32,000 bases of DNA from Propionibacteriaceae bacterium (GTDB lineage: Bacteria; Actinomycetota; Actinomycetes; Propionibacteriales; Propionibacteriaceae), in NCBI GenBank assembly GCA_031256725.1, contig JAIRQE010000021.1, forward strand, positions 1-32,000, read 5' to 3'. Of the stretch, positions 1 to 21,803 are shown piece after piece. The position numbers were made by a program, and so were the translations under genes. The notes beneath the pieces were generated by a model. The model was not told the DNA's origin. It made no database searches and saw only the letters and a program-made list of their open reading frames with translations. Positions within the stretch are counted from its first letter, which is position 1; every line of letters begins with the position of its first letter.

Positions 1-1320
1 GGTGATGAGCCTGGCAATGAGATCACAGTGACTGAGGATGGCGAGGTGTTGTGTACTGCCATCGTTCAGGAGGATCTGTCGTGGTCGTGTACCCCGTCGA
101 AGCCATTGGAGGATGGTGAGCATACGATCACCGCAACCGAGACCGACCCGACTGGAAGCGAGTCAGCTCCATCCGATGAGGTGACCTTCACAGTGGACAC
201 CACGCCGCCGAACCCGCCAGTGATCACAGGCCCAGAAGATGGATCAGTGACCACCGATAGGACTCCACTGATTGAGGGTACAGGCGACGAACCTTTCAAC
301 GAGATCACGGTAACCGACTTGGAGGGTAATGAACTGTGTACCGCTATTGTCCAGTCGGATAAGACATGGGGTTGTACCCCTGTCACACCACTGGAAGATG
401 GTGACCATACGATTATCGCGACCGAGAAGGACCCAACAGGGAACGTCTCTGATCCGTCGAACGAAGTGACCTTCACGATCACTCCACCAGTGATCAAGGA
501 TCTCGATCCCCCGAATCCGCCAGTCATCACTGGTCCGGAGGATGGGGAAACGGTCACGACCGACACCCCTGAGATCACGGGTGCAGGCGACGAACCGGGG
601 AACACGATCACGGTGACCGATGAGGATGGCAACGAAGTATGTACAGCCATAGTCACGGAGAACAAGACGTGGGCTTGTACTCCGGAGAACCCCTTCGAGG
701 ATGGACCACACACGCTCACAGCGACGGAAACCGATGACGAGGGGAACGAATCCGACCCCTCTGATCCGATCGACTTCATCGTGGATACGACTCCTCCGAA
801 GCCGCCAGTGATCACCAACCCATCAGATGGTGATGTGACCACGAACAACACTCCGACGATTACGGGTACTGGCGATGAGCCAGGCAACACGATTATCGTG
901 ACTGAACCAGGTGGCAAGCAGGTGTGTACTGCTGTTGTACAGCCAAACAAGACCTGGTCGTGTACCCCATCCAAGCCGATGCCTGATGGTGACCACACGA
1001 TCACGGCGACCGAGACGGATCCTGCTGGAAACATCTCCGATCCGTCGAACGAGGTCAGTTTCACGATTGATTCGACGCCACCTTCTGACCCGACGATTGG
1101 GCCCTCCAATGGTACCGAGTTGACGGGTACTACCGATCCTGACACCACTATCACTGTACGCGATGAGGATGGCAATGAGGTGGAAGGATGCGTGGACATC
1201 AAGCCGGACAACAAGGGTACGTGGATCTGCTGGCCCAAGGAGAAGCTGAATGAGGGTGACAAGGTCACAGTGACCGCCAAGGACCCTGCAGGAAACGAGT
1301 CCAACCCGGTGCCCGGTATT
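1..1320 (+). repeat. In-frame tandem coding repeats of ~282-303 nt. Units start at ~1, 283, 586 and 871, with a degenerate fifth unit from ~1135.
   Basis: The unit start GG(C/T)GA(C/T)GA(A/G)CC recurs at 1, 283, 586 and 871. The translated units align residue for residue, including both cysteines. The fifth unit (DPDTTITVRDEDGNEVEGC...WIC) is divergent, with C-x12-C. Confidence 0.9.
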
Positions 1321-1719
1321 ATCACTGGTCTGGGGATCGACATCGCTTTCAAGCAGAGGAACCCTCTGCAGACCCAGATTGTTACAGGTAGGAACTTCAA
1401 CCCAGGCGAGACAGTGTGTGCCTTCGTGTACTCCGAGCCAATGCCATTGGGTTGCAAGGTAGCGGATGCCAAGGGTGAGGCAACCTGGACCTTCACGGTA
1501 CCATCTGGCTTCGCAGCAGGCAGCCATAGAGTTGAGATAGTTGGCAAGATTTCCGGGAAAGTATCGGACACTTTCATGGTCACCTTGGTTCCAAGGGTTG
1601 AAACTGGTGGTATCGCCGTTCAGACAGGTTCAGGTCTCGCAGCCGTGGCCATGGTACTGGTCGCAGTAGGAGCCGCCACATTGATAGGTGTAAGGCGATA
1701 TCTGGGTAATGTTAACTGA
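1..1719 (+). CDS. Cell-surface repeat protein, 5'-truncated by the window edge. Tandem bacterial Ig-like (Big_3_4-type) domains plus a C-terminal sorting-signal-like tail.
   Basis: Frame 1 is open from base 1. GDEPGNEITVTEDGEV... already matches the internal repeat, so the gene starts upstream of the window. There are four ~94-101 aa repeats of the form GDEPGN.ITVTD..G.E.CTA.V....W.CTP..P..DG.HT.TATETDP.GN.SDPS..V.F..D..PP.PP.ITGP.DG, each with a C-x11-C pair. The C-terminus is PRVETGG + ~24 hydrophobic residues + RRYL. Stop TGA at 1717-1719. Confidence 0.85.
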   Translation, partial: GDEPGNEITVTEDGEVLCTAIVQEDLSWSCTPSKPLEDGEHTITATETDPTGSESAPSDEVTFTVDTTPPNPPVITGPEDGSVTTDRTPLIEGTGDEPFNEITVTDLEGNELCTAIVQSDKTWGCTPVTPLEDGDHTIIATEKDPTGNVSDPSNEVTFTITPPVIKDLDPPNPPVITGPEDGETVTTDTPEITGAGDEPGNTITVTDEDGNEVCTAIVTENKTWACTPENPFEDGPHTLTATETDDEGNESDPSDPIDFIVDTTPPKPPVITNPSDGDVTTNNTPTITGTGDEPGNTIIVTEPGGKQVCTAVVQPNKTWSCTPSKPMPDGDHTITATETDPAGNISDPSNEVSFTIDSTPPSDPTIGPSNGTELTGTTDPDTTITVRDEDGNEVEGCVDIKPDNKGTWICWPKEKLNEGDKVTVTAKDPAGNESNPVPGIITGLGIDIAFKQRNPLQTQIVTGRNFNPGETVCAFVYSEPMPLGCKVADAKGEATWTFTVPSGFAAGSHRVEIVGKISGKVSDTFMVTLVPRVETGGIAVQTGSGLAAVAMVLVAVGAATLIGVRRYLGNVN

Positions 1720-1777
1720 ATACGGCGGTTAAGGTGATGGTTGAACACTAGAGGGGATCACCTTTTCGGGAGACCGA

Positions 1778-1811
1778 CAAGAGGGAGGAAGCGAAAGCTT
1801 CCACCCTCTTG
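1778..1811 (+). terminator. GC-rich hairpin downstream of the repeat-protein gene; candidate intrinsic terminator without a U-tract.
   Basis: CAAGAGGGAGGAAGC-GAAA-GCTTCCACCCTCTTG forms a 15-bp stem with one mismatch and a GAAA loop, ~60 nt after the stop. It is followed by TCCCCCGCG, so there is no T-run. Confidence 0.4.
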
Positions 1812-1984
1812 TCCCCCGCGTGAATCAGAGTGGTGTCAGCCCGTATCCCCTGACACCCAAAATCAAGAAAGCAAGAAACAGTGCAAGAAGATATGTTCCT
1901 GACACCACTTGAACCGTTTCAGTTGAAGTGGCAGATGGAGAAGTAGAATAATTCGACAGTATAAAAATAAGCAATTCGACTTGC

Positions 1985-1994
1985 GGGGGGGGGG
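1985..1994 (+). repeat. G10 homopolymer tract in the upstream region of the adhesin gene.
   Basis: ttgcGGGGGGGGGGtgatgt: ten consecutive G, about 95-105 nt upstream of the ATG at 2090. It overlaps a TTGCGG -35-like hexamer (1981-1986) and lies upstream of TANNNT-type -10 candidates (TAGACA 2003-2008, TAGAGT 2017-2022). Confidence 0.95.
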
Positions 1995-2089
1995 TGATGT
2001 GCTAGACATATCTTTGTAGAGTCTTAAGTTCCCAGGGGGGATATGAATCGGTTCGATACCGTGAAACGACTCATACAGGAAGGAACATT

Positions 2090-3691
2090 ATGCGAAAACT
2101 GCTTAAAATAGCCGCCGGTGCACTGGCTTTGACCTTGTCGGCCTCGATGTGGATGGGCGCACCAGCCCATGCAGATGAAGAAGAAGCTTGGGGGTACGGG
2201 TCCACCCCGAAGAACGCGGACGGGAGTCTGGATTTCTCGGGCTGGTCGTCGGTGGGAGCCCTTGAGGGTTACATTGATTCTTCTTTGGGGACGACTCAAT
2301 TCACGAGGAATGATTCTGATTATCAAATAGAACTGAGGACTCCGGTCTTTTGGGAAGGGACTCCTATGCTTGTGTCGAATGTTGTTGTAGAGCTGCTTCA
2401 ACAGGCACGGTGGACCTATTCATTTTCTTACGGAAGTGGGAGTACGAGTGACTTCTATACAGAAATCGCTGGTAAACGGCAGGTAATTCTGGTGGATGAG
2501 GGGGAGTTCTTTGTTAAATATGATAGCCAGCATTTGGCAGCCGCATTTCAGGGCAAGGCTCGTGTAGGAGCTGACGTTGAGGGGCATTATGATGAAGACA
2601 ACGACGAATACATTATTGACAGCGAAGTTGAAGGTGCTCCAATAACCTACAGTGAAGTCGTGGATGTTGATACTAGTGGGCGAATCCTGCATAACGTAAC
2701 ATTCACCAATTCGGGCGACGAAACAATTACTGACGTTTCTTTCTCCGCTCTTATTGATACCATGCTCAATAGTGACGACTGGATTCCGATTATGGCCAAT
2801 GGAACGAACTCGGTGTACATCCAGAATGGTTCCTTCCGAATCTATTTCGATATGTTCCAAGGGGACCAGATGCTTGTGGGCGATTGGGAAAATTCGTTGG
2901 GTCCCGTTCCTGTATCTGAGAGCCTCATGTCTCCCAATGGTTATGCAAAGGGGGCTGTTATAGCTGATGGAATGGATACTGCTGTTAACTATGCCATCAA
3001 GGCCACAGACTTGACCCCCGGTAAGTCCGTATCAATGTCCTATGCTGAGAGCCTCTATGCTCCTGAGGAAATCTGCACAGTCGACCTTCAGTATATTGAC
3101 CGCGACAACGGTAATGCTGTGGTGACCCCAATTGAAGGTACAGAGGTCCTCTTTGAAGGTGTCAATGGGACGCGTGTTGGTGTTACTGATGCTGCGATCA
3201 CTGCTGGGATTCCTGAGAAGTATGTTCTTGATGCTATCGATAATCACACCAACTACCAGTGTGGGGCGAATCAGGTTATCAGGGCTTATCTCCGGCATAC
3301 GTTGACTGAGGTGGGTACCCATGAAACCACTCGGACTGTGACCTATGCTGGTGCAGGGAATCTGACTCCGAAGCCTGTGGTTCAGACCCTGGCCTGGACC
3401 GTATACACAGATGATATTACTGGTGCTACTGTGTGGGTGAGTGAGTCTGGTTATGCTGCTGTGGCGTCACAGAGCATTGAAGGGTACAAGCCCAATATTG
3501 CTGCAGTTGGAGCTACGGATGGTACAACCGTTAGGGTCGAGCCGACAAGCACTGAGGTGACTGTTACTTATGCTCCAGCAGTCAAAGCAGATACTGGTGG
3601 TACTGTCGAAAGTTCAAGTGCTCTCCTGATCGCGATGGTGGTAAGCCTCGGATTCGGAGCAGTTCTGATGAGGCGTTACCTAACCGCCTGA
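2090..3691 (+). CDS. Secreted, wall/membrane-anchored adhesin-like protein. N-terminal domain unknown; C-terminal half resembles MucBP-type repeats.
   Basis: ATG is preceded by GGAAGGA. The signal peptide is MRKLLKIAAGALALTLSASMWMGAPAHA. CTVDLQYIDRDNGNAVVTPIEGTEVLFEGVNGTRVGV...GIPEKYVLD and TRTVTYAGAGNLTPKPVVQTLAWTVYTDDITGATVW...SIEGYKP resemble lactobacillal MucBP / adhesin repeat patterns (from memory, not searched). The C-terminus is PAVKADTGG + hydrophobic segment + RRYLTA. The gene is visibly AT-richer than its neighbours. Confidence 0.8.
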   Translation: MRKLLKIAAGALALTLSASMWMGAPAHADEEEAWGYGSTPKNADGSLDFSGWSSVGALEGYIDSSLGTTQFTRNDSDYQIELRTPVFWEGTPMLVSNVVVELLQQARWTYSFSYGSGSTSDFYTEIAGKRQVILVDEGEFFVKYDSQHLAAAFQGKARVGADVEGHYDEDNDEYIIDSEVEGAPITYSEVVDVDTSGRILHNVTFTNSGDETITDVSFSALIDTMLNSDDWIPIMANGTNSVYIQNGSFRIYFDMFQGDQMLVGDWENSLGPVPVSESLMSPNGYAKGAVIADGMDTAVNYAIKATDLTPGKSVSMSYAESLYAPEEICTVDLQYIDRDNGNAVVTPIEGTEVLFEGVNGTRVGVTDAAITAGIPEKYVLDAIDNHTNYQCGANQVIRAYLRHTLTEVGTHETTRTVTYAGAGNLTPKPVVQTLAWTVYTDDITGATVWVSESGYAAVASQSIEGYKPNIAAVGATDGTTVRVEPTSTEVTVTYAPAVKADTGGTVESSSALLIAMVVSLGFGAVLMRRYLTA

Positions 3692-3902: not shown

Positions 3903-5624
3903 ATGAACGAGGTCGTGCGCCCATGGTGGAAGGATGCTATTTTCTACCAGATTTATCCACGCAGTTTTCAGGACTCGAACGGTGATGGGATCGGGGATAT
4001 TCCTGGGATTATCTCGCGGTTGGATGAGTTGGCGCATTTGGGGGTGACCTGTTTGTGGCTTTCGCCTGTGTACTGTTCTCCTGATGCTGACAACGGGTAC
4101 GACATCTCGGACTACCGACAGATCGACTCACGTTATGGGACCCTTGAGGATTTCGATCAGTTGGTGACTGAAGCTAAGACGCGCGGGATGAGGGTGATCA
4201 TGGATCTGGTCATCAACCACACCTCGGATGAACATGAATGGTTCCAGGCTAGCCGCCGCCGTGAGGAGTCGTACTCAGATTATTACATCTGGAGGCCAGG
4301 GAAACTGCCAGATGGGAGTGAAGCGGAGCCCATAGAGGGGGTCTTCGATCCGAGCGGTGCTGTTGAACCACCGAACAATTGGACTGGGTTCTTTATGGGG
4401 AGCGCCTGGGAGTGGGATGATCTGCGAGGGGAGTACTATCTCCATCTTTTCGACAAGAAGCAACCGGATCTGAACTACCACAACCCGGCTGTGATCGAAG
4501 AGATCAAACAGATCCTAAGGTTCTGGTTGGATCGGGGTATTGCGGGCTTTCGATGCGATGTCATCTCTTTGCTCTATAAGGAGTCATTGGAGGATGGGCA
4601 GGGGCTGCCAATCATCAGGGGTTTGGAACATTACAAGGGCCGTGAGGGAACCCATAAGTTCCTTCAGGAACTGCGTCGCGAGATACTGGAACCCTATGGG
4701 GCTTTCACCGTGGGTGAGACGGTGATGGTCAGTTTGGATGAGGCCAAGCAACTGTGTGATCCTGATCGCGGGGAACTTGATCTGCTCTTCTACTTTGATC
4801 ATCTGGAAGTTGATCGTCTTGTTGCGAGGTACGGCCCGAAGCCTTTCCGTGCGGATCGTCTCCTCGAGAGGCTGACCACGTGGCAGCAGGGTTTGGAGTG
4901 GAATGCTTTGTACCTTGAAAACCATGACCAGCCAAGGATTGTCTCCCATTATGGGGATGACAAGAAGTTTTGGGCAAGGAGTGCCCAGTTGTTGGCTGTG
5001 ATGCTCATGACCCTCAGGGGTTCCCCCTTCCTCTATCAGGGTCAAGAAATCGGTATGACCAACTTCGATTACACCTCCATGGATGACCTTGATGATGTCG
5101 AAAGCCACAACATGAATGGGCTCATGAAGAAAGCCCATATTCCGTACAATGTACGGTGGTGGATGATTCGTTCCTCCTCGCGAGACAACGCGCGTACACC
5201 TGTTCAATGGGATGATTCCGAGGGTGCTGGGTTCACTGCTGGCACACCATGGATGGCCATTAACGCCAACTCTTCATGGCTCAACTATGCTGCTCAGACC
5301 AAGGATCCTCACTCTGTACTCAACTTCTATCGACGCCTCATCAGGTTGCGAGGCAACTGCGAAACCCTCGCCCAGGGTGGGTTTGAACCGATCTACGCCA
5401 ACCGATCTGTGATGGCCTACAGACGTACCTCCCAAGGATCCACGCACGGGGATTACACCATCTGGCTTAACTTCTCGGGACGTACCCAAAGACTGCCTTA
5501 TGATTTGATCATCGAAGCCGGATTAGATGACTCCCATCAATGCATGGTTTCCAACACCGGAAGAAGACAGATACACGACCATCTTCTCCCCTGGGAAGCA
5601 ATCGTACTCAGGCAAGAACAATGA
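3903..5624 (+). CDS. GH13 alpha-glucosidase (oligo-1,6-glucosidase / trehalose-6-P hydrolase subfamily).
   Basis: The N-terminus WWKDAIFYQIYPRSFQDSNGDGIGDIPGI, then DLVINHTSDEH, GFRCDVI (nucleophile region), VGETV and YLENHDQPR are the canonical GH13 conserved regions. Confidence 0.95.
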   Translation: MNEVVRPWWKDAIFYQIYPRSFQDSNGDGIGDIPGIISRLDELAHLGVTCLWLSPVYCSPDADNGYDISDYRQIDSRYGTLEDFDQLVTEAKTRGMRVIMDLVINHTSDEHEWFQASRRREESYSDYYIWRPGKLPDGSEAEPIEGVFDPSGAVEPPNNWTGFFMGSAWEWDDLRGEYYLHLFDKKQPDLNYHNPAVIEEIKQILRFWLDRGIAGFRCDVISLLYKESLEDGQGLPIIRGLEHYKGREGTHKFLQELRREILEPYGAFTVGETVMVSLDEAKQLCDPDRGELDLLFYFDHLEVDRLVARYGPKPFRADRLLERLTTWQQGLEWNALYLENHDQPRIVSHYGDDKKFWARSAQLLAVMLMTLRGSPFLYQGQEIGMTNFDYTSMDDLDDVESHNMNGLMKKAHIPYNVRWWMIRSSSRDNARTPVQWDDSEGAGFTAGTPWMAINANSSWLNYAAQTKDPHSVLNFYRRLIRLRGNCETLAQGGFEPIYANRSVMAYRRTSQGSTHGDYTIWLNFSGRTQRLPYDLIIEAGLDDSHQCMVSNTGRRQIHDHLLPWEAIVLRQEQ

Positions 5625-6211
5625 TAGACAAGGCAGTGTTTCACCTCGATACCCGCAACTCAAGCTATTGGTTTCGGATTACTGAACACGGGTATCTGGA
5701 ACACCTCCATTACGGCGTCAGGCTTCCACAGGATCAGGACCCTACAGCACTAGCCATCAAGAGAACCATGGAGATTGGTACCTCGATCGCCTATAAGGAA
5801 ATCGATCCCACCTATCAACTTGATCATCTCTGCCTCGAATGGTCTGGCATAGGGATGGGGGACTTCCGTACCTCTCCTTGCGAGATTGTGACAGGAGACG
5901 ATTCCTATTCCACGGACTTCAGATACCGCGAACACGAATGGGTGCCCGGCCCCATGGTAGGCGCTACCCTGCCTGGACCTCACGCAACCAGCGACGAAGC
6001 CAAGACTCTCACCGTCCATTTGAAAGACCAACAAGCCCATCTGAGTCTCGCCATGGAGTACGCAGTCTTTCCGAAAACTGATGTGATTTCTAGGCGATCT
6101 ACCCTCCACAATCACGGCGACCGACCCATCTCCATCAGGTGGATGGCCTCAATGATGATCGACCTTCCCGATAAGCAGTACAGAGTACTTGATCTTTGCT
6201 GTGTTACTTAA
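5621..6211 (+). pseudogene. Truncated GH36 alpha-galactosidase; only the N-terminal ~190 codons remain.
   Basis: ATG 5621 overlaps the GH13 stop (ATGA). MIDKAVFHLDTRNSSYWFRITEHGYLEHLHYG...DFRYREHEW...ISRRSTLHNHGDRPISIRWMASMMIDLPDKQYRVLDL follows the GH36 N-terminal domain pattern up to the point where family members continue with the conserved G-A-W-x-R-E segment. Here it reads CCVT-stop instead. Full-length enzymes are ~700+ aa, and none of the catalytic domain is present downstream. Confidence 0.85.
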
Positions 6212-6270
6212 ATAGTGGAGTCACAAACAATGAATATGGCTTTGACAAGGGATTATTCTCTGAAACCCTA

Positions 6271-6299
6271 TTGCGTGGCGAAAGCATTAGTACTAGATT
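6271..6299 (+). promoter_or_regulatory. Candidate housekeeping-sigma promoter (TTGCGT-17 nt-TAGATT) for the htpG-like operon.
   Basis: TTGCGT (6271-6276), a 17-nt spacer and TAGATT (6294-6299) sit in an AT-rich stretch just after the GH36 breakpoint. This would give a ~235-nt leader before GTG 6541. Confidence 0.35.
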
Positions 6300-6304
6300 A
6301 TGAG

Positions 6305-6540
6305 CAGAGCTAATGCTCCAGGAATTGAAGGACCCACTAGTGTCAGATGGGTGTCCTAAGTCCTGTAGCCCAGGCAGTGAGACGCGAGGCGCTGTCGGGC
6401 TCTCCCACAGCCGGTTCGCGTCCCGTACGACCCGCGGGGCGCGAATCGGCATGGCACCAACACAGTTAAACTCCACATGGACCTTGTTGGTTCACTCACA
6501 CTGCCCTTGGTAGATTGGGTACCAAATCGAAAGGGGTGCT
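6305..6540 (+). promoter_or_regulatory. GC-rich structured 5' leader or small RNA upstream of the htpG-like gene; class unknown.
   Basis: Three consecutive hairpins. (1) 6330-6357: GGACCCA...TGGGTGTCC. (2) 6368-6400: GCCC(A)GGCAG...CTGTCGGGC. (3) 6411-6449: CCGGTTCGCGTCCCG / CGGGGCGCGAATCGG, 15 bp. Hairpins 2 and 3 contain G-U wobbles that pair only on the + strand transcript. No convincing ORF is present. The SD sequence AAAGGGG lies just before GTG 6541. Confidence 0.35.
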
Positions 6541-8388
6541 GTGTCCGAGGCGCGACCATTCCAAGTCGACCTCCAGGGAGTCGTAGATTTACTGGGTCGC
6601 CATATTTATTCGAGCCCGAGAGTGTATCTTCGTGAACTCCTCCAAAATGGAGTCGATGCAATTACCGCACGCCGGTCAGCGAACGAAGAAGAGGCGACGC
6701 ATTCCTGGGGGATCACCATCTATCCAGCAGATGAATCCGACTTCATTCTCGTGGATGAGGGGATCGGTCTGACCGCAGATGAGGTGAGTGAACTCCTTGC
6801 CACAGTCGGGCGAAGCTCCAAGAGAGACATCCTCGGCATGGCACGTACTGACTACCTTGGGCAGTTCGGAATCGGACTACTCTCCTGTTTCATGGTCTCG
6901 GATTCGATTCGAATCCTCTCCCAGTCAGCCACTGGCGCGCCAGCCGTCGAATGGATCGGCTCAGGCGACGGTACCTTCGAGGTACGCCCCTATGGTCAAG
7001 AGATTCCTATCGGTACCCAGGTTTTCCTCACCCCACGATTCGACACAGTGGAACTCCTCAAACGTGAGAGCGTACTTCAGATGGCGAAGGAATACGGTGA
7101 ATATCTCCCCGTACCCATCCACATCGCGACCACTGCCTATGCCCCCGGTCGTAAACCCACGACGACCACACTCAACTCTCATCCCGTCTTCCTTGACGAT
7201 GATCCTGACCATGCGGCCCTCGCTGCCTTCGCTAAGGATGCCCTAGGTTTCGACCCACTTGGTGTCATCAACCTCTCAGCACCAGGAACGGGTACACGAG
7301 GAAAGGGCTTCATCCTCCCCTTCTCCCCACCACCGAATGCCCACCAATCCACCCGCGCTTATCTTGGTGGGATGCTCCTGTCCAAGAGGGTCGACGACCT
7401 TCTCCCCGATTGGGCCTTCTTCATTCGCGCTGTCGTCGACTCGACAGGACTCTCCCCGACTGCATCCCGCGAGGGGATTGTTGAGGACTTCAACCTTGAG
7501 TACACACGTGAACAGCTCGGTACCTGTGTGAGGGCCTGGGTCATGGATATGGCCGTACATCAGCCCCACCAGTTCACAACATTCCTAGCCGTACACGAGG
7601 TCGCCATCAAGCAACTCGTCATCCACGACGAAGAGATGGCACGGATCTTCATGGGGTGGCTGTCTGTGGAAACCTCAGCGGGGAGGATCACCTTCGACCG
7701 ACTAGTGAAGATGTCACCGAACGTGAGGTATACCCGTACCCGTGACGAGTTCCGGCAGGTCTCCAGTTTGGCTCGTAATGATGCACCACTGGTCAACGGT
7801 GGTTACGTTTACGACTCTGATCTCGTGCAGTTGCTTCCCACGGTGTACCCCTCTGTGATGGTCACCCAGGTTGATGTACTCACCGAACTGGATCGCCTCG
7901 ACCCGCCATCTCTGGAGGATCGTAGTGTTACAGTAGCCCTCGAAGATCGAGCCACGAAGGTACTCGAATCCAGGGAGTGCCAGGCTGTGGTACGTATCAT
8001 GGAATCTGAGGATATTCCGGCGCTTTTCGTCGCCGATCCTGAAGTCTTCCGTCATATTGACCGGGGGCGGGCGAGCCAGGCTTCAGCGGGTTCCCTCTGG
8101 GAGGAGATCCTGGCCCAAACTGATGCTTTCGCCTTGTCGCGCAGCCAGTACGCTGATTCGGGTTTCTCAGCCAGGCTCTGCCTGAACTGGGCGAACCCCC
8201 TGATCCGATCCCTGTCCTCATTAGAAGACCAGGCCATATTTGACCGATATGTCCAGCTGCTTTATGTGCAATCTCAGTTGGCCGGAAGTTATCCTCTCAC
8301 TCAGGCAGATCGCAACCTTATGACGACTGCCCTCAGTGACCTCATGCACCTCACCACCCCACCAACTGGAGGAAGTTCCAATGTCTGA
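6541..8388 (+). CDS. htpG: Hsp90-family molecular chaperone (divergent HtpG-like GHKL ATPase).
   Basis: Bergerat-fold motifs are present: RELLQNGVDA (E..N..D), VDEGIGLT (DxGxG) and GQFGIGLLS (GxxGxG). A middle-domain SRE-type motif (TASREGIVED) is also present. Length is 615 aa, similar to HtpG. The N-terminus FQVDLQGVVDLLGRHIYSSPRVYLREL parallels FQAE...LL.L...SLYSNKEIFLREL. GTG start has an AAAGGGG SD. Confidence 0.9.
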   Translation: MSEARPFQVDLQGVVDLLGRHIYSSPRVYLRELLQNGVDAITARRSANEEEATHSWGITIYPADESDFILVDEGIGLTADEVSELLATVGRSSKRDILGMARTDYLGQFGIGLLSCFMVSDSIRILSQSATGAPAVEWIGSGDGTFEVRPYGQEIPIGTQVFLTPRFDTVELLKRESVLQMAKEYGEYLPVPIHIATTAYAPGRKPTTTTLNSHPVFLDDDPDHAALAAFAKDALGFDPLGVINLSAPGTGTRGKGFILPFSPPPNAHQSTRAYLGGMLLSKRVDDLLPDWAFFIRAVVDSTGLSPTASREGIVEDFNLEYTREQLGTCVRAWVMDMAVHQPHQFTTFLAVHEVAIKQLVIHDEEMARIFMGWLSVETSAGRITFDRLVKMSPNVRYTRTRDEFRQVSSLARNDAPLVNGGYVYDSDLVQLLPTVYPSVMVTQVDVLTELDRLDPPSLEDRSVTVALEDRATKVLESRECQAVVRIMESEDIPALFVADPEVFRHIDRGRASQASAGSLWEEILAQTDAFALSRSQYADSGFSARLCLNWANPLIRSLSSLEDQAIFDRYVQLLYVQSQLAGSYPLTQADRNLMTTALSDLMHLTTPPTGGSSNV

Positions 8389-11206
8389 CCCACGCCAAGA
8401 AATCAAGGATCTCCTAGAGAAGATCGACGAAACCTATTGGGGTCCTGAAGAACGGGCCATGATCGATAGGGCCCTAGAGCTCAGCCGCGAGTTGGGCGAC
8501 GAGGAGCTTGAATACCAGGTACGAGTACGGCTGACCGCGTCAGCTGTACGTACTGGAGACTCAGATGCACTCCTGTCATCCTTTGCCTGGTGTCTCGCCA
8601 AACATGATGAGGATCCCCAGAGATTCCCCACCGATGTTGAGAATGGCGCTGCAGATCTGATGTGGCAGTTCAAGTGGATGATTGGTGCACTCGACGATTC
8701 ACCAATCTTCAGCCTCACTCAAGGCGAGGCCATGCTCGACGACATGGAAGCCCACTATGTTCGTGAAGGTTTGGGGCTCTCGGGAGTGATCACCGCCCGC
8801 TTCCAACACGCCTGGGGTATTGGGGACATTGAGAAAGCCAAGGAACTCAGAACCCTTCTTGCAGCAACTCCGCGAGACGAACACAGCCACTGTGATGCCT
8901 GTGGGCGAAGCGAACTCGCTGGATTCGCCCTAGAAATCGGTGAGGAGGAACACGCACTCACTCTCGTAGACGAGATCATGGAGGGCGGGTTCTCCTGTGG
9001 CGAGGAGCCTGAACATGCCCTTTCGCGTACCCTTGTAGCCAAGCTTAAGGCTGGGAGAAACGATGATGCCCTCGATTCGCATATGCGCTCCTATCGTCTG
9101 GCACGCAACAATCCTGACAACATCTCTATCGTCGCTGACAACATGATCTTCTGCGCGATCACAGGCAACGAGGCTCGCGGGTTGGCCATGGTTGAAAGAC
9201 ATGTACCCTGGCTCTCCCACGATGCGCTCAATGAGGCAGGACAGCTCAACATGCTCACCGCCATCGGTGTTGTCCTTGAGTCTGTGGGTCGAGCCGGATA
9301 TGGGGAACAAGTGGTACGTGGGGCAAACGACCCGTCCTTGGATCGTTTCTTCGGTACCCGGGAAACACCCTGGACGGTGGCGGAGTTGATTCCAGCCGTC
9401 TGGGCGTCAGCAGCAACAATGTCGGCAGCATTCGACCAACGTAATGGCAACGATTACATCTCGTCCGAGGTTGCACGCAAGAAGGCAATGCTGGATCAGA
9501 GGTACGACCTGCCTATTGCCAGCGAGGTCTTCCTTCCAAGGGAAACCGCCATCCAACCTTCCACACCCGAACAGTGGCTGGCCTTGGGGGAGATCTATGT
9601 GTACGCCGGACTCTCGGATGCGAAGGAACCTCTGGAGCGCGCCCTTGAGGGTGCCAATCCAGCCACGAAATCAAGGGCCCTCCAAATCCTTACTTCGACG
9701 CTCTACCACATAGGTGAAGTTGAGGAGGCCAAGCAAACTCTCAAAGCCCGCTGCGAGGCCCTGGAAGCCGAGGGTGAACACCTTCAAGCCGAGTTGGAAA
9801 CCCGAGCAGGATTGTCACTCTATGGTTCAACTGGCCCAGAGGATTTGGCTGTACTTGAAGCTGAATGTGCCCGCTTGGCGGATACCGGTGGAGCCGAATT
9901 GGGTGACGCAGAGATCACCCTCGCTGGCTGTCTTATGGAACAGGAAGAATTTGACTCTGACAGGGTACTCCAACTCCTAGAATCCGCTGCGGTACATTGC
10001 ACCAGTCGACCCAATCTGAAAGCCTCAGTCCTCAAAATGCTCATGGTCCAATATGCCAACAATGATGACAACGAGAAAATGGAAGCAGCCTTCGAGGAAG
10101 CCACAGCACTGGATCTCTGTGACGGAGCTAGGGCCTCTGTACTCACCCAACAGGCACGAATCATGGGTGGGAAGCAGCGTTTTGAGGAAGGTGCTGCCCT
10201 CGCCGACGCTGCCCTGAAGATCTATGTCAACTATGGAGCCTCCAAGCCTCAGATTAATGCAGCCGTACTAGCCTCAGCCTTGTACCAGGATGCTGGGCGT
10301 CATGAGGAGGAACTGGCGAGAGTTCGTTTCGCCCTGCGTGAAGCTGAGCCTCTAGAGATCGACACCACAGGTATCCGGTACAGACTTGGCAGAGCTCTCC
10401 TGGCAACCAGTCATCCCCATGAAGCTGTGGAGATCCTGTGGGAGGTACTCCAAGACGAAGAGAAGATGGAGGTACCTGCCGCCAGCCGAGCAGAAACCTG
10501 TGAGGTCTTGGCTCAGGGTTTCGAAGCCGCTGAGAAATATGGGAATGCCGTGTCAATGTACGGCAGGGCTGCAGATCTCCTAGTCGAGGGCGAACAGCCT
10601 GTTATGGCGGCAAATATGCTGCGTCGTAAAGCCAACATCTTGAGGGAATTCGAAATCTATGACGATGCACTGGAGGCGCTATCACAAGCCTGGGATCTTG
10701 TGCAAAACAATGACGCCCCAGGCATGGAGGTACAGGTCCTTGAAGCCTGGGCATTCACCAAATCCAATACTGGTGATGCAAGTGCCCTTGATGATATTCG
10801 TCGCGCCATCACCACTGTCGAGAATGATCCCGACGGCCCCTTCACATGGAAGGTGGCGGACCTCATCGACTCTCAGGGACGGGTACTCATGGGCCTGGAA
10901 CGTCGTGATGAAGCCGTCGCCTGTTTCCTCCAAGCCGGAGATGGTTATGCCGAGGCTGGCGACTTTGTCAGTGCTGCACGAGCCGAGCATTTCGCTGCCC
11001 AAAACCTGGCTGGTCCCCTGGAGCGTATCGAGGAGGCCGTACCAATCTGGGCGGATTCTTTGGCCCACGCCGATCAGGCCACAGCCCAAGGACAGGATGC
11101 TGCAGGTCTACTAGAGTCGATCCTTGTGAAGTACGCTGAAGCCTTGGAATCCCTCGGTCGTAATGGTGAAGCTGCCGAGTTGCGCTCCCGCATGTCTCAG
11201 GGGTGA
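8381..11206 (+). CDS. Large (941 aa) all-helical TPR-like repeat protein, translationally coupled to the htpG-like gene.
   Basis: ATG 8381 is preceded by GGAGGA (8367-8372) and overlaps the htpG-like stop (ATGTCTGA). The sequence is acidic and helix-repeat rich. The C-terminal two-thirds has recurring A/L/E-rich ~34-aa-like units, for example AETCEVLAQGFEAAEKYGNAVSMYGRAADLL and EAVACFLQAGDGYAEAGDFVSAARAEHFAA. No TM segment or signal peptide. Confidence 0.8.
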   Translation: MSDPRQEIKDLLEKIDETYWGPEERAMIDRALELSRELGDEELEYQVRVRLTASAVRTGDSDALLSSFAWCLAKHDEDPQRFPTDVENGAADLMWQFKWMIGALDDSPIFSLTQGEAMLDDMEAHYVREGLGLSGVITARFQHAWGIGDIEKAKELRTLLAATPRDEHSHCDACGRSELAGFALEIGEEEHALTLVDEIMEGGFSCGEEPEHALSRTLVAKLKAGRNDDALDSHMRSYRLARNNPDNISIVADNMIFCAITGNEARGLAMVERHVPWLSHDALNEAGQLNMLTAIGVVLESVGRAGYGEQVVRGANDPSLDRFFGTRETPWTVAELIPAVWASAATMSAAFDQRNGNDYISSEVARKKAMLDQRYDLPIASEVFLPRETAIQPSTPEQWLALGEIYVYAGLSDAKEPLERALEGANPATKSRALQILTSTLYHIGEVEEAKQTLKARCEALEAEGEHLQAELETRAGLSLYGSTGPEDLAVLEAECARLADTGGAELGDAEITLAGCLMEQEEFDSDRVLQLLESAAVHCTSRPNLKASVLKMLMVQYANNDDNEKMEAAFEEATALDLCDGARASVLTQQARIMGGKQRFEEGAALADAALKIYVNYGASKPQINAAVLASALYQDAGRHEEELARVRFALREAEPLEIDTTGIRYRLGRALLATSHPHEAVEILWEVLQDEEKMEVPAASRAETCEVLAQGFEAAEKYGNAVSMYGRAADLLVEGEQPVMAANMLRRKANILREFEIYDDALEALSQAWDLVQNNDAPGMEVQVLEAWAFTKSNTGDASALDDIRRAITTVENDPDGPFTWKVADLIDSQGRVLMGLERRDEAVACFLQAGDGYAEAGDFVSAARAEHFAAQNLAGPLERIEEAVPIWADSLAHADQATAQGQDAAGLLESILVKYAEALESLGRNGEAAELRSRMSQG

Positions 11207-11227
11207 CACCAAGGCTAGGATGAGTTC

Positions 11228-12961
11228 GTGAATATCCCACTCAACTCTGTGAAACAGGTCTTATCCCAGATGGGTAGCCGATACCGTGCTTTCACAGCTG
11301 AAGCCTATGATCAGTTCACTGGACGAGTCAGGGTGGGTGTTTTCTGCTGCAACCTTTTCTTGAGCCTATACCTCTGTGCAGTGGTGGTCATGCTCTGCGT
11401 GGTTCATACCGGTTCCGGGGTCCCCCAGTTGAGAGACCTCGGTACGGCCATTATTTATCTTCCCTTCCTCTTCTATCAGGGTTTCAAGTTTCTCTTGGTC
11501 AAGAAGCCATCTTTGTCTATTCATCGCAGTGCGGAGAAGACCCGGTTGACACCCACGGTCATCCTCATTGTGACTGGCATCATCTCTGCTGTCTTCCTTC
11601 TCAGATTGCTGGCCTACTTTCCAGGCGGGATGGGTTGGGATTCCATCCAACAATGGAAACAGGTACAAGCTGGCGCCTTCAACGATTGGCATCCCGCCAT
11701 CCATACGATGATCATCTGGCTGGTGACCCGCATCGTCGACCACTACACCTTCTTCCTGGCTGTACAGATCCTGGTCTTCGCTTTCGTGGCTGGGTACCTC
11801 GTTGCCACCCTCCTGTCTTGGGGTGTACATAGGTACTGGGCATACGCCTTCGTGGGGATCATCCTTCTCAGCCATTCGACCCCACGGATCTTCATGCATC
11901 CGTGGAAAGACACGATGGTGACCATTCTCATGGTGGCCCTGGCTGCCTATGTGGTCAACATTGTTTTCTCGAATGGCCGATGGATCGCGAAGTGGTACAA
12001 CGCGGTCGCCCTTGCCATCGTTGGTGCCCTGATTACCGTTGTACGGCACAATGGCTTTTTTATTACCCTGCCTTGTGCGGTTCTTCTGATCATCTTCTAC
12101 CGCAAGACATCCATGGATCCTGGGACTGCGCGCAGGATGACTGGTGGTCGCGGTGTACTCATCGCTGTTCTGGGTGGCCTCCTCATCGTGATAGGAATCA
12201 CCCAGGGGCTCTATCGCCTTGCCGATGTGGAGAAACCACCATCACAGACCTATATAGAATCGGTGGGAATCCCCATGTCGATGCTCGGCCATGTGATGGT
12301 CACCAATCCAGATGCGCTTGACGCGGATACTCTAGCCTTTCTCACCTCGATTGCTGACGAGGACACCTGGCAGGAATGGTTCACGACAGGGTATAACTCC
12401 ATCAAATGGGAGACCGAAGCCTATGAGAAAGTGGGGGAACTGCCTCCACGTGATCTTGCTTCCATGACAATGCGTACGATCCGTAGTGCCCCATTCGAGT
12501 GCCTGGTCGGCTTCGGTAATGCTACGCGCGTTGTCTGGAGCCCCATCGACTGGCTTCACACAGTCAACGTGGGTCGCGGCGATTTTGCCTTGGATGTTGC
12601 ATACACCCAAGCCGAGGTGGATGCGTGGGAGCCTGTCATCAAGCCGGCTCGATATGTACACCTGGCTCTCGATAGCGTCATCCAACTCTTGGCGCCTGAT
12701 CGGGTACTATCAATTGTGGGTCTGCATGCATTCCTCCTGCTCGTCATTGGAGTTTATTCGGTGAACCGTCGACTGGGGATGAAAGCCCTGTTCATTATTG
12801 GCCCAGTTCTTGTGTACAACATGGGTACCATGCTGCTCTTGGGCGGGCCTGATTATCGGTACTTCCACTTCAACATACTCGTGAGCCTTCCATTCATCAT
12901 CGCCCTATTGGCGAAAACCACCAACGAGAACCTCGAGGTTTCAAAGGAGAGCAACTCATGA
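11228..12961 (+). CDS. Polytopic integral membrane protein with a periplasmic-type loop domain; GT-C-like glycosyltransferase candidate (paralog 1).
   Basis: About 10 hydrophobic segments in the first ~330 aa, a ~170-aa soluble domain, then 2 C-terminal TM segments. The first loop contains GWDS...FNDWHPAIHT. It shares blocks with the next gene. GTG start is 22 nt after the TPR gene stop. Confidence 0.85.
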   Translation: MNIPLNSVKQVLSQMGSRYRAFTAEAYDQFTGRVRVGVFCCNLFLSLYLCAVVVMLCVVHTGSGVPQLRDLGTAIIYLPFLFYQGFKFLLVKKPSLSIHRSAEKTRLTPTVILIVTGIISAVFLLRLLAYFPGGMGWDSIQQWKQVQAGAFNDWHPAIHTMIIWLVTRIVDHYTFFLAVQILVFAFVAGYLVATLLSWGVHRYWAYAFVGIILLSHSTPRIFMHPWKDTMVTILMVALAAYVVNIVFSNGRWIAKWYNAVALAIVGALITVVRHNGFFITLPCAVLLIIFYRKTSMDPGTARRMTGGRGVLIAVLGGLLIVIGITQGLYRLADVEKPPSQTYIESVGIPMSMLGHVMVTNPDALDADTLAFLTSIADEDTWQEWFTTGYNSIKWETEAYEKVGELPPRDLASMTMRTIRSAPFECLVGFGNATRVVWSPIDWLHTVNVGRGDFALDVAYTQAEVDAWEPVIKPARYVHLALDSVIQLLAPDRVLSIVGLHAFLLLVIGVYSVNRRLGMKALFIIGPVLVYNMGTMLLLGGPDYRYFHFNILVSLPFIIALLAKTTNENLEVSKESNS

Positions 12962-14673
12962 ACACTTTTCGCGAGATGATCACAGCAGTACCCTCAAAGA
13001 TCACCGAGCTACGTGAGTTTTATCGAGAGTTCACCGCCAAGGCTTATGCTCCCCATCATGGTGTACGCAAGGTAGGGGCCTTCCTGTGCTATACCGCAGT
13101 GTCGATCTATCTGGGGATGATCGCGGTCTTGCTGCTGATCCTGATGACCGCTTGGTACTATCACAACAGACTTCCCAATCTCGCAAGCCTGGTGGTACTC
13201 GCTGTGGGGGCACCTGTCATCTTCTATCAGGGCATCAAACTCTTGATCATCAAGGTTCCTGACCTGGGTGTGACCAGGAGCGAGCACAGGGGCAGGCTGT
13301 CATGGAAACTCATGGTGGCGATCTCGGCGGGCCTGGGTGTTTTCTTTGTGGCGGGGCTCCTAGCCTATTATCCAGGCGCGATAGGTTGGGATTCGGTCCT
13401 GCAATGGGAACAGGTACTCTCAGGGAAGTTCAATGATTGGCATCCAGCACTCCACACAATGATCATGTGGATCTTCTATCAGATCGTACCGAGCTACCCC
13501 TTCTTTCTTGGGGTTCAGTCCGTGGTCTTCGCAATCCTATGTGGGTACATGGTTGCCACGTTGAAAGCCTGGGGTTTCGCCACACGCTGGCCTGTGCTCT
13601 TCCTCGTGTTTGCGGTTGGTACCCATTCGACGTCGAGGATCCTCCTGCATCCGTGGAAGGATACGACCTTCACGATCCTCATGCTGTGGATGGCGGTCAT
13701 CCTGATCAACATCATATTCACTGAGGGGAAATGGCTGGCGAAATGGTACAACGTCCTCGCAGTCATCATGGTGGTTGCGCTCTTGTCCACGGTTCGCCAC
13801 AACGGGATCTTCATCACCATCCCATTGGTTGTACTTCTCGTCTTCTTCTATCGCAAAGCGAGCAGGAATGTACTGGTTGCCGCTGTCGGGTCGATCCTCG
13901 TCTGGTTGGGCATCACCCAGGGTCTGTACAGACTTGCTGATGTTGAACAGCCTGAATCCCAAAGCTATGTCGAAGTCGTTGGGATACCCATGGTGATCAT
14001 GGGGGAGGTACTCACCAGCAATCCTGATGCTCTTGATCCAGAAACCAGGGACTTCCTTTACGCGATCACCGACGATGAATCCTGGCACACTAGGTACGAA
14101 ACAGGCAACTTCAACTTAGTGAAGTGGCAGTGCGACGCCAACAGTGTGGTCGCTCAGGTACCTCCAGCAGATTTTGCCGCCATGACTTGGCGTACTATGA
14201 AGAATGCTCCCAACGAGTCACTGGTTGCCCTAGCCGCCGTGACCCGGGTGGTGTGGAGCCCCATCGATTGGCAGTACTCAGTCGGGTACTGGATTAACGA
14301 ATATGCCAAAGATGTTGCCTACACTGATGCCCAAGTGGAAGCGATGAAACCCATCGCTGAGCCTGTGGGCGCAGTCTATAAGGTCATCAAGGGTGGGGTC
14401 AGTATGTTGCTCCCAGACCGGATCATGGGTTGCATTGGCCTACATATGCTGGCATTACTATTCTTCGGGATCTATGCCCTCAATCGAGGTCGGGGCTTCA
14501 CAAGTCTTCTCGTTTTGGTCCCCATACTTGCGTACAACATTGGTACGATGCTCCTGCTGTGTGGCCCTGATTATCGGTACTTCCACTTTAATGTGGTCCT
14601 AACTCTGCCTGTGATTCTCACCCTCCTGGCAAGGGTATGCCCAGCAGAATCCATGACAGAGGAAATTACCTAA
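12958..14673 (+). CDS. Polytopic integral membrane protein; GT-C-like glycosyltransferase candidate (paralog 2).
   Basis: ATGA overlap with the upstream paralog. Colinear conserved blocks: NDWHPA(I/L)HTMI, HPWKDT, KWYN, VRHNG(F/I)FIT, ITQGLYRLADVE, VGIPM, TNPDALD, TRVVWSPIDW and GPDYRYFHFN. Confidence 0.85.
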   Translation: MNTFREMITAVPSKITELREFYREFTAKAYAPHHGVRKVGAFLCYTAVSIYLGMIAVLLLILMTAWYYHNRLPNLASLVVLAVGAPVIFYQGIKLLIIKVPDLGVTRSEHRGRLSWKLMVAISAGLGVFFVAGLLAYYPGAIGWDSVLQWEQVLSGKFNDWHPALHTMIMWIFYQIVPSYPFFLGVQSVVFAILCGYMVATLKAWGFATRWPVLFLVFAVGTHSTSRILLHPWKDTTFTILMLWMAVILINIIFTEGKWLAKWYNVLAVIMVVALLSTVRHNGIFITIPLVVLLVFFYRKASRNVLVAAVGSILVWLGITQGLYRLADVEQPESQSYVEVVGIPMVIMGEVLTSNPDALDPETRDFLYAITDDESWHTRYETGNFNLVKWQCDANSVVAQVPPADFAAMTWRTMKNAPNESLVALAAVTRVVWSPIDWQYSVGYWINEYAKDVAYTDAQVEAMKPIAEPVGAVYKVIKGGVSMLLPDRIMGCIGLHMLALLFFGIYALNRGRGFTSLLVLVPILAYNIGTMLLLCGPDYRYFHFNVVLTLPVILTLLARVCPAESMTEEIT

Positions 14674-15064: not shown

Positions 15065-15520
15065 TTGAAAGAAGTGCTGCGCCTCGTCTTGAGGTTCGAT
15101 CTCAAGGGGCTGCTGCTTACCCCAACAACAAATGTTGTCGTGCAGGTTTTCCGGGCATTGTTTGTTGCGGCGCTCGCCTTTATTGCTGATGCCGGGCTCT
15201 TATGGGTACTCTCCCTCACGGGGATGCACTATCTGATCTGCGCTGCTTTCGGGTTCATCCTTGGTGTCATCGTCAACTTTGTACTCAGCATCAAATTTGT
15301 TTTCAAAGAGAAGGCTCCGGTTGGGCGCAGAGTCGAGTTTCTCGTTTATCTACTTGTGGGCCTCGGAGGCTTTGGGATCACCATAGGGTTGATGTGGTTC
15401 TTCACAGAGATTGTGGGGTTCCATTTCATGGTGTCTAAACTGGCGACAATCGTGGCGACATTCATCTGGAATTTCGGGGTACGAAAGCTCACCTTGTACA
15501 GGAAGGATTCATCCGAATGA
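15065..15520 (+). CDS. GtrA-family small membrane protein (putative polyprenyl-phosphate-sugar flippase).
   Basis: About 150 aa with four hydrophobic helices. The overall GtrA-like layout is present: [21 protein letters not shown]..., ...FVLSIKFVF and a C-terminal [14 protein letters not shown]. Start is TTG 15065 or GTG 15074. A TATACT -10 candidate lies at ~15022. Confidence 0.8.
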
Positions 15521-17061
15521 AGAAAGTGGTGATCATCGGGGGAGGTCCAGCAGGACTTACGGCAGCCTATGAGCTTCTAGAAGCCGGAGGATTCGAGGTA
15601 ACCCTCCTGGAGGAATCTGAGGTCTTCGGAGGCATCTCACGTACAGTCGACTCCAATGGCAACCGAATGGATATCGGTGGCCATCGATTCTTCTCCAAGG
15701 ATACCCGGGTCACCGATTGGTGGGCTAAGTTTGTACGTCCTCAAGGAAAGCTGGCCAAGGACCAAATCCTCTTGGGTACGAAAGTAGACCTCGTGGAAGG
15801 CGGTGCTGATCCGGAATCTGAGGACCTTGTCATGCTGGAAAGAATCCGCGTATCAAGGATCTATTACCGCAATGCCTTCTTCGATTATCCTGTGTCTCTC
15901 AACTGGAACACCATCAAGAATATGGGCCTGGTGACCACCATGCGTGCAGGTTTCAGCTATCTGGCTACTCTCTTCCGCAAGCTCCCAGACGACAACCTGG
16001 AAAACTTCTATATCAACCGCTTCGGTAAGGTGCTCTATTCGATGTTCTTTGAGGGGTACACAGAAAAGCTCTGGGGTCGCCACCCTCGCGAAATCTCTGC
16101 CGAGTGGGGTGCCCAGCGGGTCAAGGGCCTATCTATTAGGGCTGTTCTTGCTGACATCTTTGGCAAGATCTTCAAGGTCAAGAACCGCAAGGTGGAGACC
16201 TCCCTGATTGAGAAATTCATCTACCCCAAGTACGGCCCAGGTCAACTGTGGACTCAGGTCGCTGAGGAGATTAGGACTCGAGGGGGAAAGGTCATCACAG
16301 GCGCATCCGTCACAGGTATCACCCGTAATAAGGTGGGCAAGATTACCAGCGTGACATGCTCCAATGGAGACAAGTACCCCTGCGATGAGCTCATCTCATC
16401 CATGCCAGTCAAGGATCTGGTTACTGCGATGGCTAAGGTTCCTGAGGAATCTGTACGTATTGCTGAGGGTCTGCCCTACCGTGATTTCCAGACTGTTGGG
16501 TTGCTCGTGCCCAATCAAAAATTCCTCCTGCGTAACAACGGGAAACACCCCACTGTTGGTGACATCACTCCGGATTGTTGGATCTATGTACAAGACACTT
16601 CTGTGACCCTGGGGCGTCTCCAGGTCTTCAACAACTGGTCCCCGTACATGGTCAAGGACCTTGAGAACACCGTGTGGATGGGGTTGGAGTATTTCAACGA
16701 CGAGGGGGATAAGTACTGGGAGATGTCCGATGAGGATTTCACCCGATTCGCCATCGAAGAGCTCATTAGAATCGGAGTGATCGCCTCTAAAGATGACGTG
16801 ATCCATTCCCACCGTGAGCACGTCAAAAAGGCCTACCCTGCGTACTTCGATACCCATGCTGAGTTCGATGAACTGCGAGCCTTCCTCGATACCATCGACA
16901 ATCTTTATTGTGTTGGGCGTAATGGACAGCATCGGTACAACAATATGGATCACTCCATGGTGACTGCCTTCGAAGCAGTATCCAACATCCTTTCGGGTAC
17001 CACCGACAACTCAAACATCTGGGATGTGAACACCGACCAGGAGTACCACGAGGAAAAGTGA
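15517..17061 (+). CDS. NAD(P)/FAD-dependent oxidoreductase (amine-oxidase / UDP-galactopyranose-mutase-like Rossmann flavoenzyme).
   Basis: ATGA overlap with the GtrA gene. The N-terminal dinucleotide fingerprint is [37 protein letters not shown], followed by GGHRFF. 514 aa. Confidence 0.9.
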
Positions 17062-19775: not shown

Positions 19776-19894
19776 CCCGGATGACGTGACATTGTAGGCG
19801 ATGGTAGAGTTTAGGGGCGACTTGGGAAAGGGTCGCGCAACCTACGATCCGAGTTGAAGTCAGCCGGTTTGTACATGTGGAAAGGGGTGCAGGA

Positions 19895-21781: not shown

Positions 21782-21803
21782 ATCTGACGACTACAATAGT
21801 CTT

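Follow-up and report, generated by a model that had tools for sequence, protein, structure and literature searches.

In eukaryotes, Hsp90 works with tetratricopeptide repeat (TPR) co-chaperones (Hop/Sti1, PP5, FKBP51/52, CHIP) that dock on its C-terminal MEEVD peptide. The physiological role of the bacterial Hsp90, HtpG, is poorly defined; to our knowledge, the canonical protein works with DnaK and without dedicated co-chaperones. Here, a locus was analysed in which the gene of an Hsp90 paralog overlaps that of a 941-amino acid (aa) helical-repeat protein, called the partner below. It lies in a 32,000-nucleotide (nt) stretch of DNA from a Propionibacteriaceae bacterium (GenBank assembly GCA_031256725.1, contig JAIRQE010000021.1, positions 1 to 32,000), referred to as the window. 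Divergent, shorter HtpG groups have been described in the Actinobacteria and Firmicutes, and a length of 615 aa was given for the second HtpG of Streptomyces coelicolor (Chen, Zhong and Monteiro, 2006; PMC1525184).

The locus resembles the eukaryotic system in that an Hsp90 is paired with a helical-repeat protein, which in actinobacteria bears a true TPR array. It differs in that the two genes overlap and form one operon, in that the Hsp90 has no conserved tail, and in that the conserved element of the partner is a cysteine-bearing solenoid and not the TPR array. The pairing is genuine and ancient: two phyla share the operon linkage, often with translational coupling. What is new is the partner family, which has no name, and its pairing; the family of the Hsp90 paralog is already known and named. 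An initial annotation of the window had not recognised the arrangement as a described system. This did not hold for the Hsp90 part, which belongs to the NCBIfam-named family NF010683. It did hold for the pairing: neither the partner nor the pairing is described in the literature searched, which omits most subscription journals, and no partner gene is mentioned in the NF010683 entry or in Chen et al. (2006; PMC1525184).

Organisation of the locus

Four open reading frames (ORFs) follow each other on the + strand: 6541-8388 (GTG start, 615 aa), 8381-11206 (ATG start, 941 aa), 11228-12961 (577 aa) and 12958-14673 (571 aa). This layout and its coupled junctions had been proposed in the initial annotation, and both were confirmed by the ORF coordinates and by reading of the junctions. 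Direct reading of the junction of genes 1 and 2, ccaATGTCTGAc, gave an 8-nt overlap (8381-8388). The translational-coupling junction (8369..8388, + strand) is made up of the Shine-Dalgarno sequence GGAGGA at 8369-8374, already noted in that annotation, the partner ATG at 8381 and the TGA stop of the Hsp90 gene at 8386-8388.

The Hsp90 gene is preceded by a non-coding leader (6212..6540, + strand) with AAAGGGG ahead of the GTG start. A promoter in this leader is putative, and a consensus promoter scan of its + strand was empty. Rfam and tRNA scans of the window, leader included, gave no matches. In the public gene call (P0411), the Hsp90 paralog starts at 6622 and has 588 aa, 27 residues fewer than the ORF starting at GTG 6541. 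The shorter form would drop the N-terminal F-Q-V-D-L strand common to all homologs. GTG 6541 was retained as the better start because the alignments with homologs begin at residues 2-7 of the 615-aa form.

Hsp90 paralog

The product of gene 1 (6541..8388, + strand; 615 aa), designated HSP90c, comprises a GHKL N-terminal domain, a middle domain with the catalytic arginine and a C-terminal domain. It was assigned to the HSP90 family, as first annotated, by profile searches: the NCBIfam model NF010683 (PRK14083, 'HSP90 family protein') matched residues 3-607 with 658.7 bits (cutoff 455, E = 7.8e-198). The Pfam HSP90 score was slightly under the family cutoff. The model of canonical HtpG, NF003555, failed with 158.9 bits against a cutoff of 371 and matched only residues 5-380. 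From length and taxa, NF010683 is probably the 'HtpG group C' of Chen et al. (2006).

Against solved structures, the sequence similarity of gene 1 ended at about residue 360 and the top match was TRAP1. Alignment to TRAP1 showed the Bergerat-fold ATP-binding motifs in place: RELLQNGVDA (catalytic E32, Mg-binding N36), DEGIGL (adenine-binding D72) and the glycine-rich GQFGIGLLS. The middle-domain PTASRE, with the catalytic R310, aligned to NLSRE of TRAP1. The Hsp90 motifs, including A308, S309, R310 and E311, were invariant in eight sequences from two phyla, and the earlier description of intact GHKL motifs and a middle-domain SRE was thus upheld. An AlphaFold2 (AF2) model of the protein reached a predicted local distance difference test score (pLDDT) of 83.7. 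When this model was searched with Foldseek, it aligned over 630-670 columns to full-length Hsp90, TRAP1, GRP94 and HtpG, with template modelling (TM) scores of 0.56-0.63 and E values of ~1e-33. The C-terminal third of the protein, although divergent, has thus remained an Hsp90 C-terminal domain. Gene 1 encodes a full three-domain Hsp90 in which all catalytic motifs are kept, and ATPase and clamp activity is predicted for it. Its three-domain architecture and catalytic motifs are the same as those of canonical HtpG (E. coli type, NF003555; structure 2IOP), from which it differs by failing NF003555 and by having a partner: the canonical htpG genes found in PLSDB are without one.

Conservation of the gene pair

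Loci were collected from both sides of the pair. The first 84 partner-fetched loci came from look-ups and a scan of one genome per species; this genome scan, run with alignment A2, gave its 80 best loci, mostly from Microbacterium. The cluster look-up of ten distant partner cluster representatives gave little taxonomy beyond the same genus. Sampling was then widened by a protein search seeded with a 25%-identical member and by tblastn against PLSDB.

The Hsp90 paralog gene was upstream of the partner on the same strand in 82 of the first 84 loci. With distant lineages added, 89 of 92 loci had it immediately ahead of the partner gene in the same orientation. In 21 of these 89, from both phyla, the end of the Hsp90 gene overlaps the partner start by 1-11 nt; in 66 a gap of 0-84 nt separates them. 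The converse was also examined, and a partner was directly downstream in 9 of 10 Hsp90-fetched loci. A tblastn search of 72,556 PLSDB records with gene 1 gave seven full-length matches (four Streptomyces, one Paenibacillus, two Listeria), in records that are mostly chromosomes or chromids filed as plasmids, and all seven were followed immediately by a partner match. No partner was found beside the five partial matches, which were four canonical htpG genes and one cyanobacterial 'ATP-binding protein'. Three further Hsp90-fetched loci were inspected, and a partner was present in Agromyces (4-nt overlap) and in locus L105; it was missing in L104. In the public Streptomyces annotation, an 'HSP90 family protein' is followed at once by a 1040-aa hypothetical protein.

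The pair is present in Propionibacteriaceae, Microbacteriaceae, Micromonosporaceae, Thermomonosporaceae, Streptomyces, Paenibacillus and Listeria. The clade ~25% identical to the window partner includes the Micromonosporaceae and Thermomonosporaceae. Asanoa, Thermomonospora and a metagenome lineage, at ~25-30% partner identity, keep the gene order, each with a 4-nt overlap. The initial annotation had proposed a fixed pair of an HtpG paralog and a helical-repeat protein; these counts support it, with an adjacency kept at ~25% partner identity across Actinomycetota and Bacillota. A conserved third gene was also sought and rejected, as the neighbours differ in every lineage.

In the Bacillota, the Hsp90 genes are members of the same family as gene 1, and the partners are short. 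Listeria monocytogenes has an HSP90 family gene (NF010683, 799 bits) followed by tandem 324- and 320-aa homologs of the partner N-terminal domain (4980-6948 of locus L088). Paenibacillus has a 607-aa Hsp90 paralog (NF010683, 715 bits) whose gene overlaps that of a 353-aa partner by 4 nt. These short partners align to residues ~1-365 of the window partner. By their position beside fri, the Listeria genes are lmo0942 (Hsp90) and lmo0941 and lmo0940 (partners) (PMC3534079). The only statement found on lmo0941 is that it encodes a hypothetical protein of unknown function (PMC6901971). Both lmo0941 and lmo0940 resemble the N-terminal domain of gene 2 and stand directly after an HSP90 family gene; they differ from gene 2 by their length, by the missing TPR extension and by being two tandem copies. 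Upstream, the Listeria pair is flanked by fri, a ferritin-like gene, and by a gene of the HesB family. An SMI1/KNR4-family gene and a low-molecular-weight tyrosine phosphatase gene lie after it (L088 7044-7790).

Two further arrangements were seen among the actinobacterial loci. The partner is duplicated in tandem behind a single Hsp90 gene (954 + 962 aa) at 6978-12768 of locus L002, from a Micrococcales metagenome-assembled genome (MAG), and also in L003 and L008. The gene of a ClpB-type AAA+ disaggregase was found at a distance of 2-7 kb in two loci, L004 of a Propionibacteriaceae MAG (gene at 726-2858) and L103 of Agromyces atrinae (gene at 1249-3402); this may be due to chance.

Adjacency of this kind could be inherited gene order only, with two functionally independent proteins. 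Exceptions to the pairing do exist and the interaction is inferred, both of which are compatible with such an explanation. It is nevertheless highly improbable. Order, strand and a near-zero or overlapping junction are kept from Listeria to Micromonosporaceae while the flanking genes all change, and neutral synteny would not survive such divergence. Moreover, canonical htpG in the same collection is never accompanied by a partner. That the Hsp90 paralog and the partner are functionally linked is thus very likely.

Defence systems are known in which a GHKL ATPase is paired with a repeat protein. The possibility was considered that the pair is a conflict/defence or signalling module and not a proteostasis chaperone. 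A GHKL ATPase would then act with a repeat-protein sensor, as in MORC-like or other immune systems that contain GHKL proteins. Since the genes around it vary, the pair moves as a unit; the partner is duplicated in tandem in some loci, and an SMI1/KNR4 gene follows the pair in Listeria. The N-terminal GHKL region of gene 1, and this region only, also had weak matches: in PADLOC to TmtA (28.9 bits) and to a type II restriction enzyme (21.9 bits), and further to the restriction model BbrUII. However, these PADLOC and restriction matches span ~120 residues and are far under any cutoff, and the partner had no match in PADLOC (PADLOC-DB 2.0). Gene 1 encodes a full-length Hsp90 with middle and C-terminal domains and not a GHKL head alone, and no nuclease, protease or other effector domain was found in the pair. 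The genomic setting is also that of housekeeping genes and not of a defence island: across the genus Microbacterium the pair occupies one stable chromosomal position, beside secE-nusG-rplK, and in L. monocytogenes it is in the numbered core gene set. A defence or signalling role is consequently unlikely.

The partner family and its two halves

The partner (8381..11206, + strand; 941 aa) consists of a conserved N-terminal solenoid domain and a C-terminal TPR array. Its sequence is 100% identical to that of a protein deposited for a Propionibacteriaceae MAG. No Pfam, NCBIfam or PADLOC model matched the gene 2 product above cutoff. The same searches gave no family for the N-terminal domain or for the Bacillota partners, in which only sub-threshold TPR repeats were seen, in Listeria. 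An exhaustive search gave 1867 representative clusters, defined at 50% identity, at E <= 1e-3, a list whose weak tail may contain generic TPR proteins; 394 clusters were retained at E <= 1e-30. Partner length is very constant in Actinomycetota (~930-960 aa).

The 'TPR-like' label of the initial annotation was correct. When the profile of alignment A1 was compared with solved structures, it matched an engineered TPR (5.5e-30), Pins/LGN (~1e-17 to 1e-19) and the TPR of AfsR (1e-10), all within residues ~550-935, and residues 1-550 matched no solved structure. This array (10028..11185, + strand) is weakly conserved and restricted to Actinomycetota: it is missing from the 320-353 aa partners of Listeria and Paenibacillus. 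The TPR array is a lineage-specific C-terminal addition in actinobacteria.

Conservation is concentrated in the first ~380 residues of the alignments. The N-terminal domain (residues ~1-365; 8381..9475, + strand) has an all-alpha helical-repeat fold and co-occurs with the Hsp90 paralog in both phyla. Residues 1-440 were modelled with AF2 as an alpha-solenoid, wholly helical, with 22 helices, a pLDDT of 94 and a predicted TM score (pTM) of 0.87. Foldseek searches with this model returned generic TPR and pentatricopeptide repeat (PPR) solenoids only, at TM scores of 0.3-0.45, and no specific relative. The partner is thus a solenoid throughout, in which a distinct, unnamed N-terminal domain family is joined to an ordinary TPR half.

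The residues invariant across the phyla are F68, W95, K98, W99, G148, A153, C171, C174, C206, P210, A230, F351, D352 and R354. Motifs such as W-x-x-K-W, T-G-N-E-A-R-G-L and F-D-x-R-N do not vary in the alignments, and the W-x-x-K-W / F-D-x-R set is invariant in the N-terminal domain. The initial annotation had described the pair as one of an HtpG paralog and a TPR protein. The element associated with Hsp90 had to be corrected to the N-terminal, cysteine-bearing domain: it is the conserved element of the pair because the Listeria and Paenibacillus partners, which are without the TPR half, consist of that domain alone.

Cysteine triad

Three of the invariant residues form a cysteine triad, encoded at 8891..8998 on the + strand (C171, 8891-8893; C174, 8900-8902; C206, 8996-8998) in the context H-C-D-A-C ... 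S-C-G-E-E-P. No change of these cysteines was seen among the 24 sequences of alignment A1, the 49 of A3 or the 10, from two phyla, of A4. The predicted model places the triad in two consecutive loops between helices, 163-171 and 203-210. Judged from sequence, the triad is a possible metal or redox site.

A comparison with Hsp33 suggests itself, a chaperone with a zinc-cysteine redox switch. Both proteins have invariant cysteines that include a C-x-x-C, but the partner is an all-alpha solenoid and has three conserved cysteines, not four. Hsp33 gave no sequence or structural match to the partner in the profile search of solved structures or in Foldseek. The partner might still be chiefly a metal- or redox-sensing switch, Hsp33-like in principle, that activates the Hsp90 paralog under oxidative or metal stress. 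The invariance of C171, C174 and C206 in all sequences examined, over two phyla and in adjacent loops of a confident model, is consistent with this, as is the setting of the Listeria pair, which adjoins fri, the HesB-family gene and the nitroreductase gene nfsA. Three loop cysteines could equally form a purely structural zinc site, however. The Listeria neighbourhood is a single case, and no redox-related neighbour recurs in the other loci. We consider a role chiefly as a switch rather doubtful; it would in any case refine the cofactor reading given below and not replace it.

Docking

The C-terminus of the gene 1 product is ...TTPPTGGSSNV, and the absence of MEEVD recorded in the initial annotation was confirmed. 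Tails of the Hsp90 paralogs are not conserved: many Microbacterium proteins end in GD-x-IPF-x-DA-x, other genera have unrelated tails, and the Listeria paralog ends right after the last helix, with no tail. Docking therefore cannot be MEEVD-like, and a complex, if formed, has to involve the body of the Hsp90; in this the pair chiefly differs from the eukaryotic TPR co-chaperones. The analogy to TPR co-chaperones that dock on MEEVD, drawn at the outset, was abandoned on these grounds. A MEEVD-docking co-chaperone system was also rejected as such, as there is no conserved acidic tail and the TPR domain is not the conserved element of the partner. In many Microbacterium paralogs (L001, L015-L083), the last ~12 residues follow a genus-conserved acidic and hydrophobic pattern, (E/D)-G-D-x-(I/L)-P-F-x-D-A-x, that might serve this lineage as a contact site for the TPR array.

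Downstream membrane protein genes

Gene 3 (paralog a; 11228..12961, + strand) encodes a DUF6020-like polytopic membrane protein, with a Pfam DUF6020 score of 28.0 bits against a cutoff of 28.3. Gene 4 (paralog b; 12958..14673, + strand) encodes a DUF6020 polytopic membrane protein, with 44.5 bits against the same cutoff. The two proteins are 46% identical and their genes overlap by ATGA at 12958-12961, which agrees with the coupling of two membrane-protein paralogs first described. The gap between genes 2 and 3 was read as 21 nt (11207-11227) and is followed by GTG at 11228, a start backed by the homology of gene 3 to its paralog. A consensus scan of the gap found no terminator-like site, in line with the hairpin-free gap of the initial annotation. 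Next come a GtrA-like gene (15065-15520), located between the DUF6020 genes and an oxidoreductase gene, and the gene of a PRK07208-type oxidoreductase (15517-17061) dependent on flavin adenine dinucleotide (FAD).

It had been suggested that the four genes are one system, in which the chaperone pair would assemble or regulate the membrane glycosyltransferase-like proteins. The common strand, the 21-nt gap without a terminator-like site and the ATGA overlap make read-through plausible in this genome. Comparison with other genomes contradicts the suggestion as a general system. Homologs of DUF6020, GtrA or the FAD oxidoreductase were found in none of the 92 Hsp90-pair loci (84 + 8), and the genes downstream of the pair differ in every lineage examined. 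Conversely, a metagenome scan seeded with both paralogs gave ten loci, none with an Hsp90 or partner gene. Two of the three closest of these have DUF6020 genes directly beside a 51-53% identical homolog of the oxidoreductase: L093 (736-7365) carries the oxidoreductase and three tandem DUF6020 genes, and L095 (401-3453) one DUF6020 gene and then the oxidoreductase.

The region immediately upstream also points to a local event. There, a GH13 alpha-amylase-family gene (3903-5624) is overlapped at its end by a 223-aa ORF (5540-6211), after which 330 nt are non-coding. This ORF matches only the GH36 N-terminal domain (profile positions 1-163 of 253); it probably represents a truncated gene and, with it, a rearrangement just ahead of the Hsp90 operon. 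The presence of such a truncated gene just upstream indicates that the region is rearranged, which further weakens the case for a four-gene system. Such a system is now barely credible. That the four genes stand together is an accident peculiar to this genome, and the DUF6020 genes are outside the module even if they are read through here. They belong with the downstream envelope-glycan genes, and their closeness to the Hsp90 pair is local; paralog b probably belongs with the GtrA-like and FAD oxidoreductase genes. The DUF6020/oxidoreductase cluster looks like an uncharacterised envelope-glycan module. DUF6020 has no relative in the PDB by sequence and no mention was found in the literature searched.

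Proposed function of the pair

The two genes probably form a translationally coupled module made of an ATP-driven, Hsp90-type clamp and an obligate helical-repeat cofactor or adaptor. The Hsp90 paralog and the partner would form a complex and be made in fixed proportion. The N-terminal domain of the partner may bind the body of the Hsp90, not a tail peptide, and either tune its ATPase cycle or deliver clients. The actinobacterial TPR array would then be another surface for binding proteins and would turn the partner into an adaptor. In L002 and in Listeria, two tandem partner genes stand beside a single Hsp90 gene, which fits a diversifying adaptor. The cysteine triad could hold a structural or regulatory metal, most likely zinc, or act as a thiol switch.

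A number of points weigh against this reading. The linkage of the genes shows a shared function and not a co-chaperone mechanism, and the complex is itself hypothetical. Metal binding by the triad is putative, from sequence: H234 is invariant in Actinomycetota and not in Bacillota, and no invariant fourth ligand was found across the phyla. The pairing has exceptions: in L009 the HSP90c gene is convergent with the partner and downstream of it, in L013 there is none within 6 kb of the partner, in Actinomyces oris (L089) the partner has no adjacent HSP90c gene, and in L104 the Hsp90 paralog has no adjacent partner. The sampling is heavy in Microbacterium. Finally, no HAIR or CIRCE heat-shock operator was found near the operon, so that classical heat-shock control is not indicated.

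A wider reading is plausible, short of probable. The NF010683 proteins may be an ancient Hsp90 lineage, common to Actinomycetota and Bacillota, that works only with a dedicated cofactor, a cysteine-bearing solenoid of ~360 residues. Bound to the body of the Hsp90, this solenoid would control its cycle or its choice of clients, possibly through a metal or thiol switch, and would have been extended by TPRs into an adaptor in actinobacteria. Such a bacterial system would have arisen independently of the MEEVD/TPR system.

Other features of the window

Two genes near the start of the window encode predicted surface proteins with a C-terminal hydrophobic anchor. The first (28-1719), whose start is cut by the window, has five Big_13 and four Big_6 immunoglobulin-like repeats in near-identical units of ~90 aa. 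The second (2090-3691) has a Muc_B2-like domain. Further downstream, the 634-aa protein encoded at 19877-21781 has an N-terminal C-x-x-C...C-x-x-C, a very proline-rich middle and a C-terminal transmembrane helix, and no Pfam match. Its proline-rich middle has a local guanine + cytosine (GC) content of 0.62 and a GC skew of -0.28. The gene at 21729-22829 encodes an RNase H domain fused to a C-terminal DUF4440 (SnoaL-like) domain, and from its called start, a TTG, it shares ~50 nt with the gene before it.

Implications

Members of the partner family are currently labelled 'hypothetical' or 'tetratricopeptide repeat protein'. The present analysis gives a name and a context to ~1,900 clusters; the label 'TPR' marks the less informative half of the protein. 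The fold of the partner is predicted with confidence, its invariant residues are few enough to be mutated one by one, and the two-gene system is found in model organisms, namely L. monocytogenes (lmo0940-0942) and Streptomyces. With its genes tied to those of a single partner family in two phyla, this second Hsp90 lineage is a tractable test of Hsp90 specialisation. If the proposed function is true, bacterial Hsp90 would have a dedicated cofactor, contrary to the textbook view.

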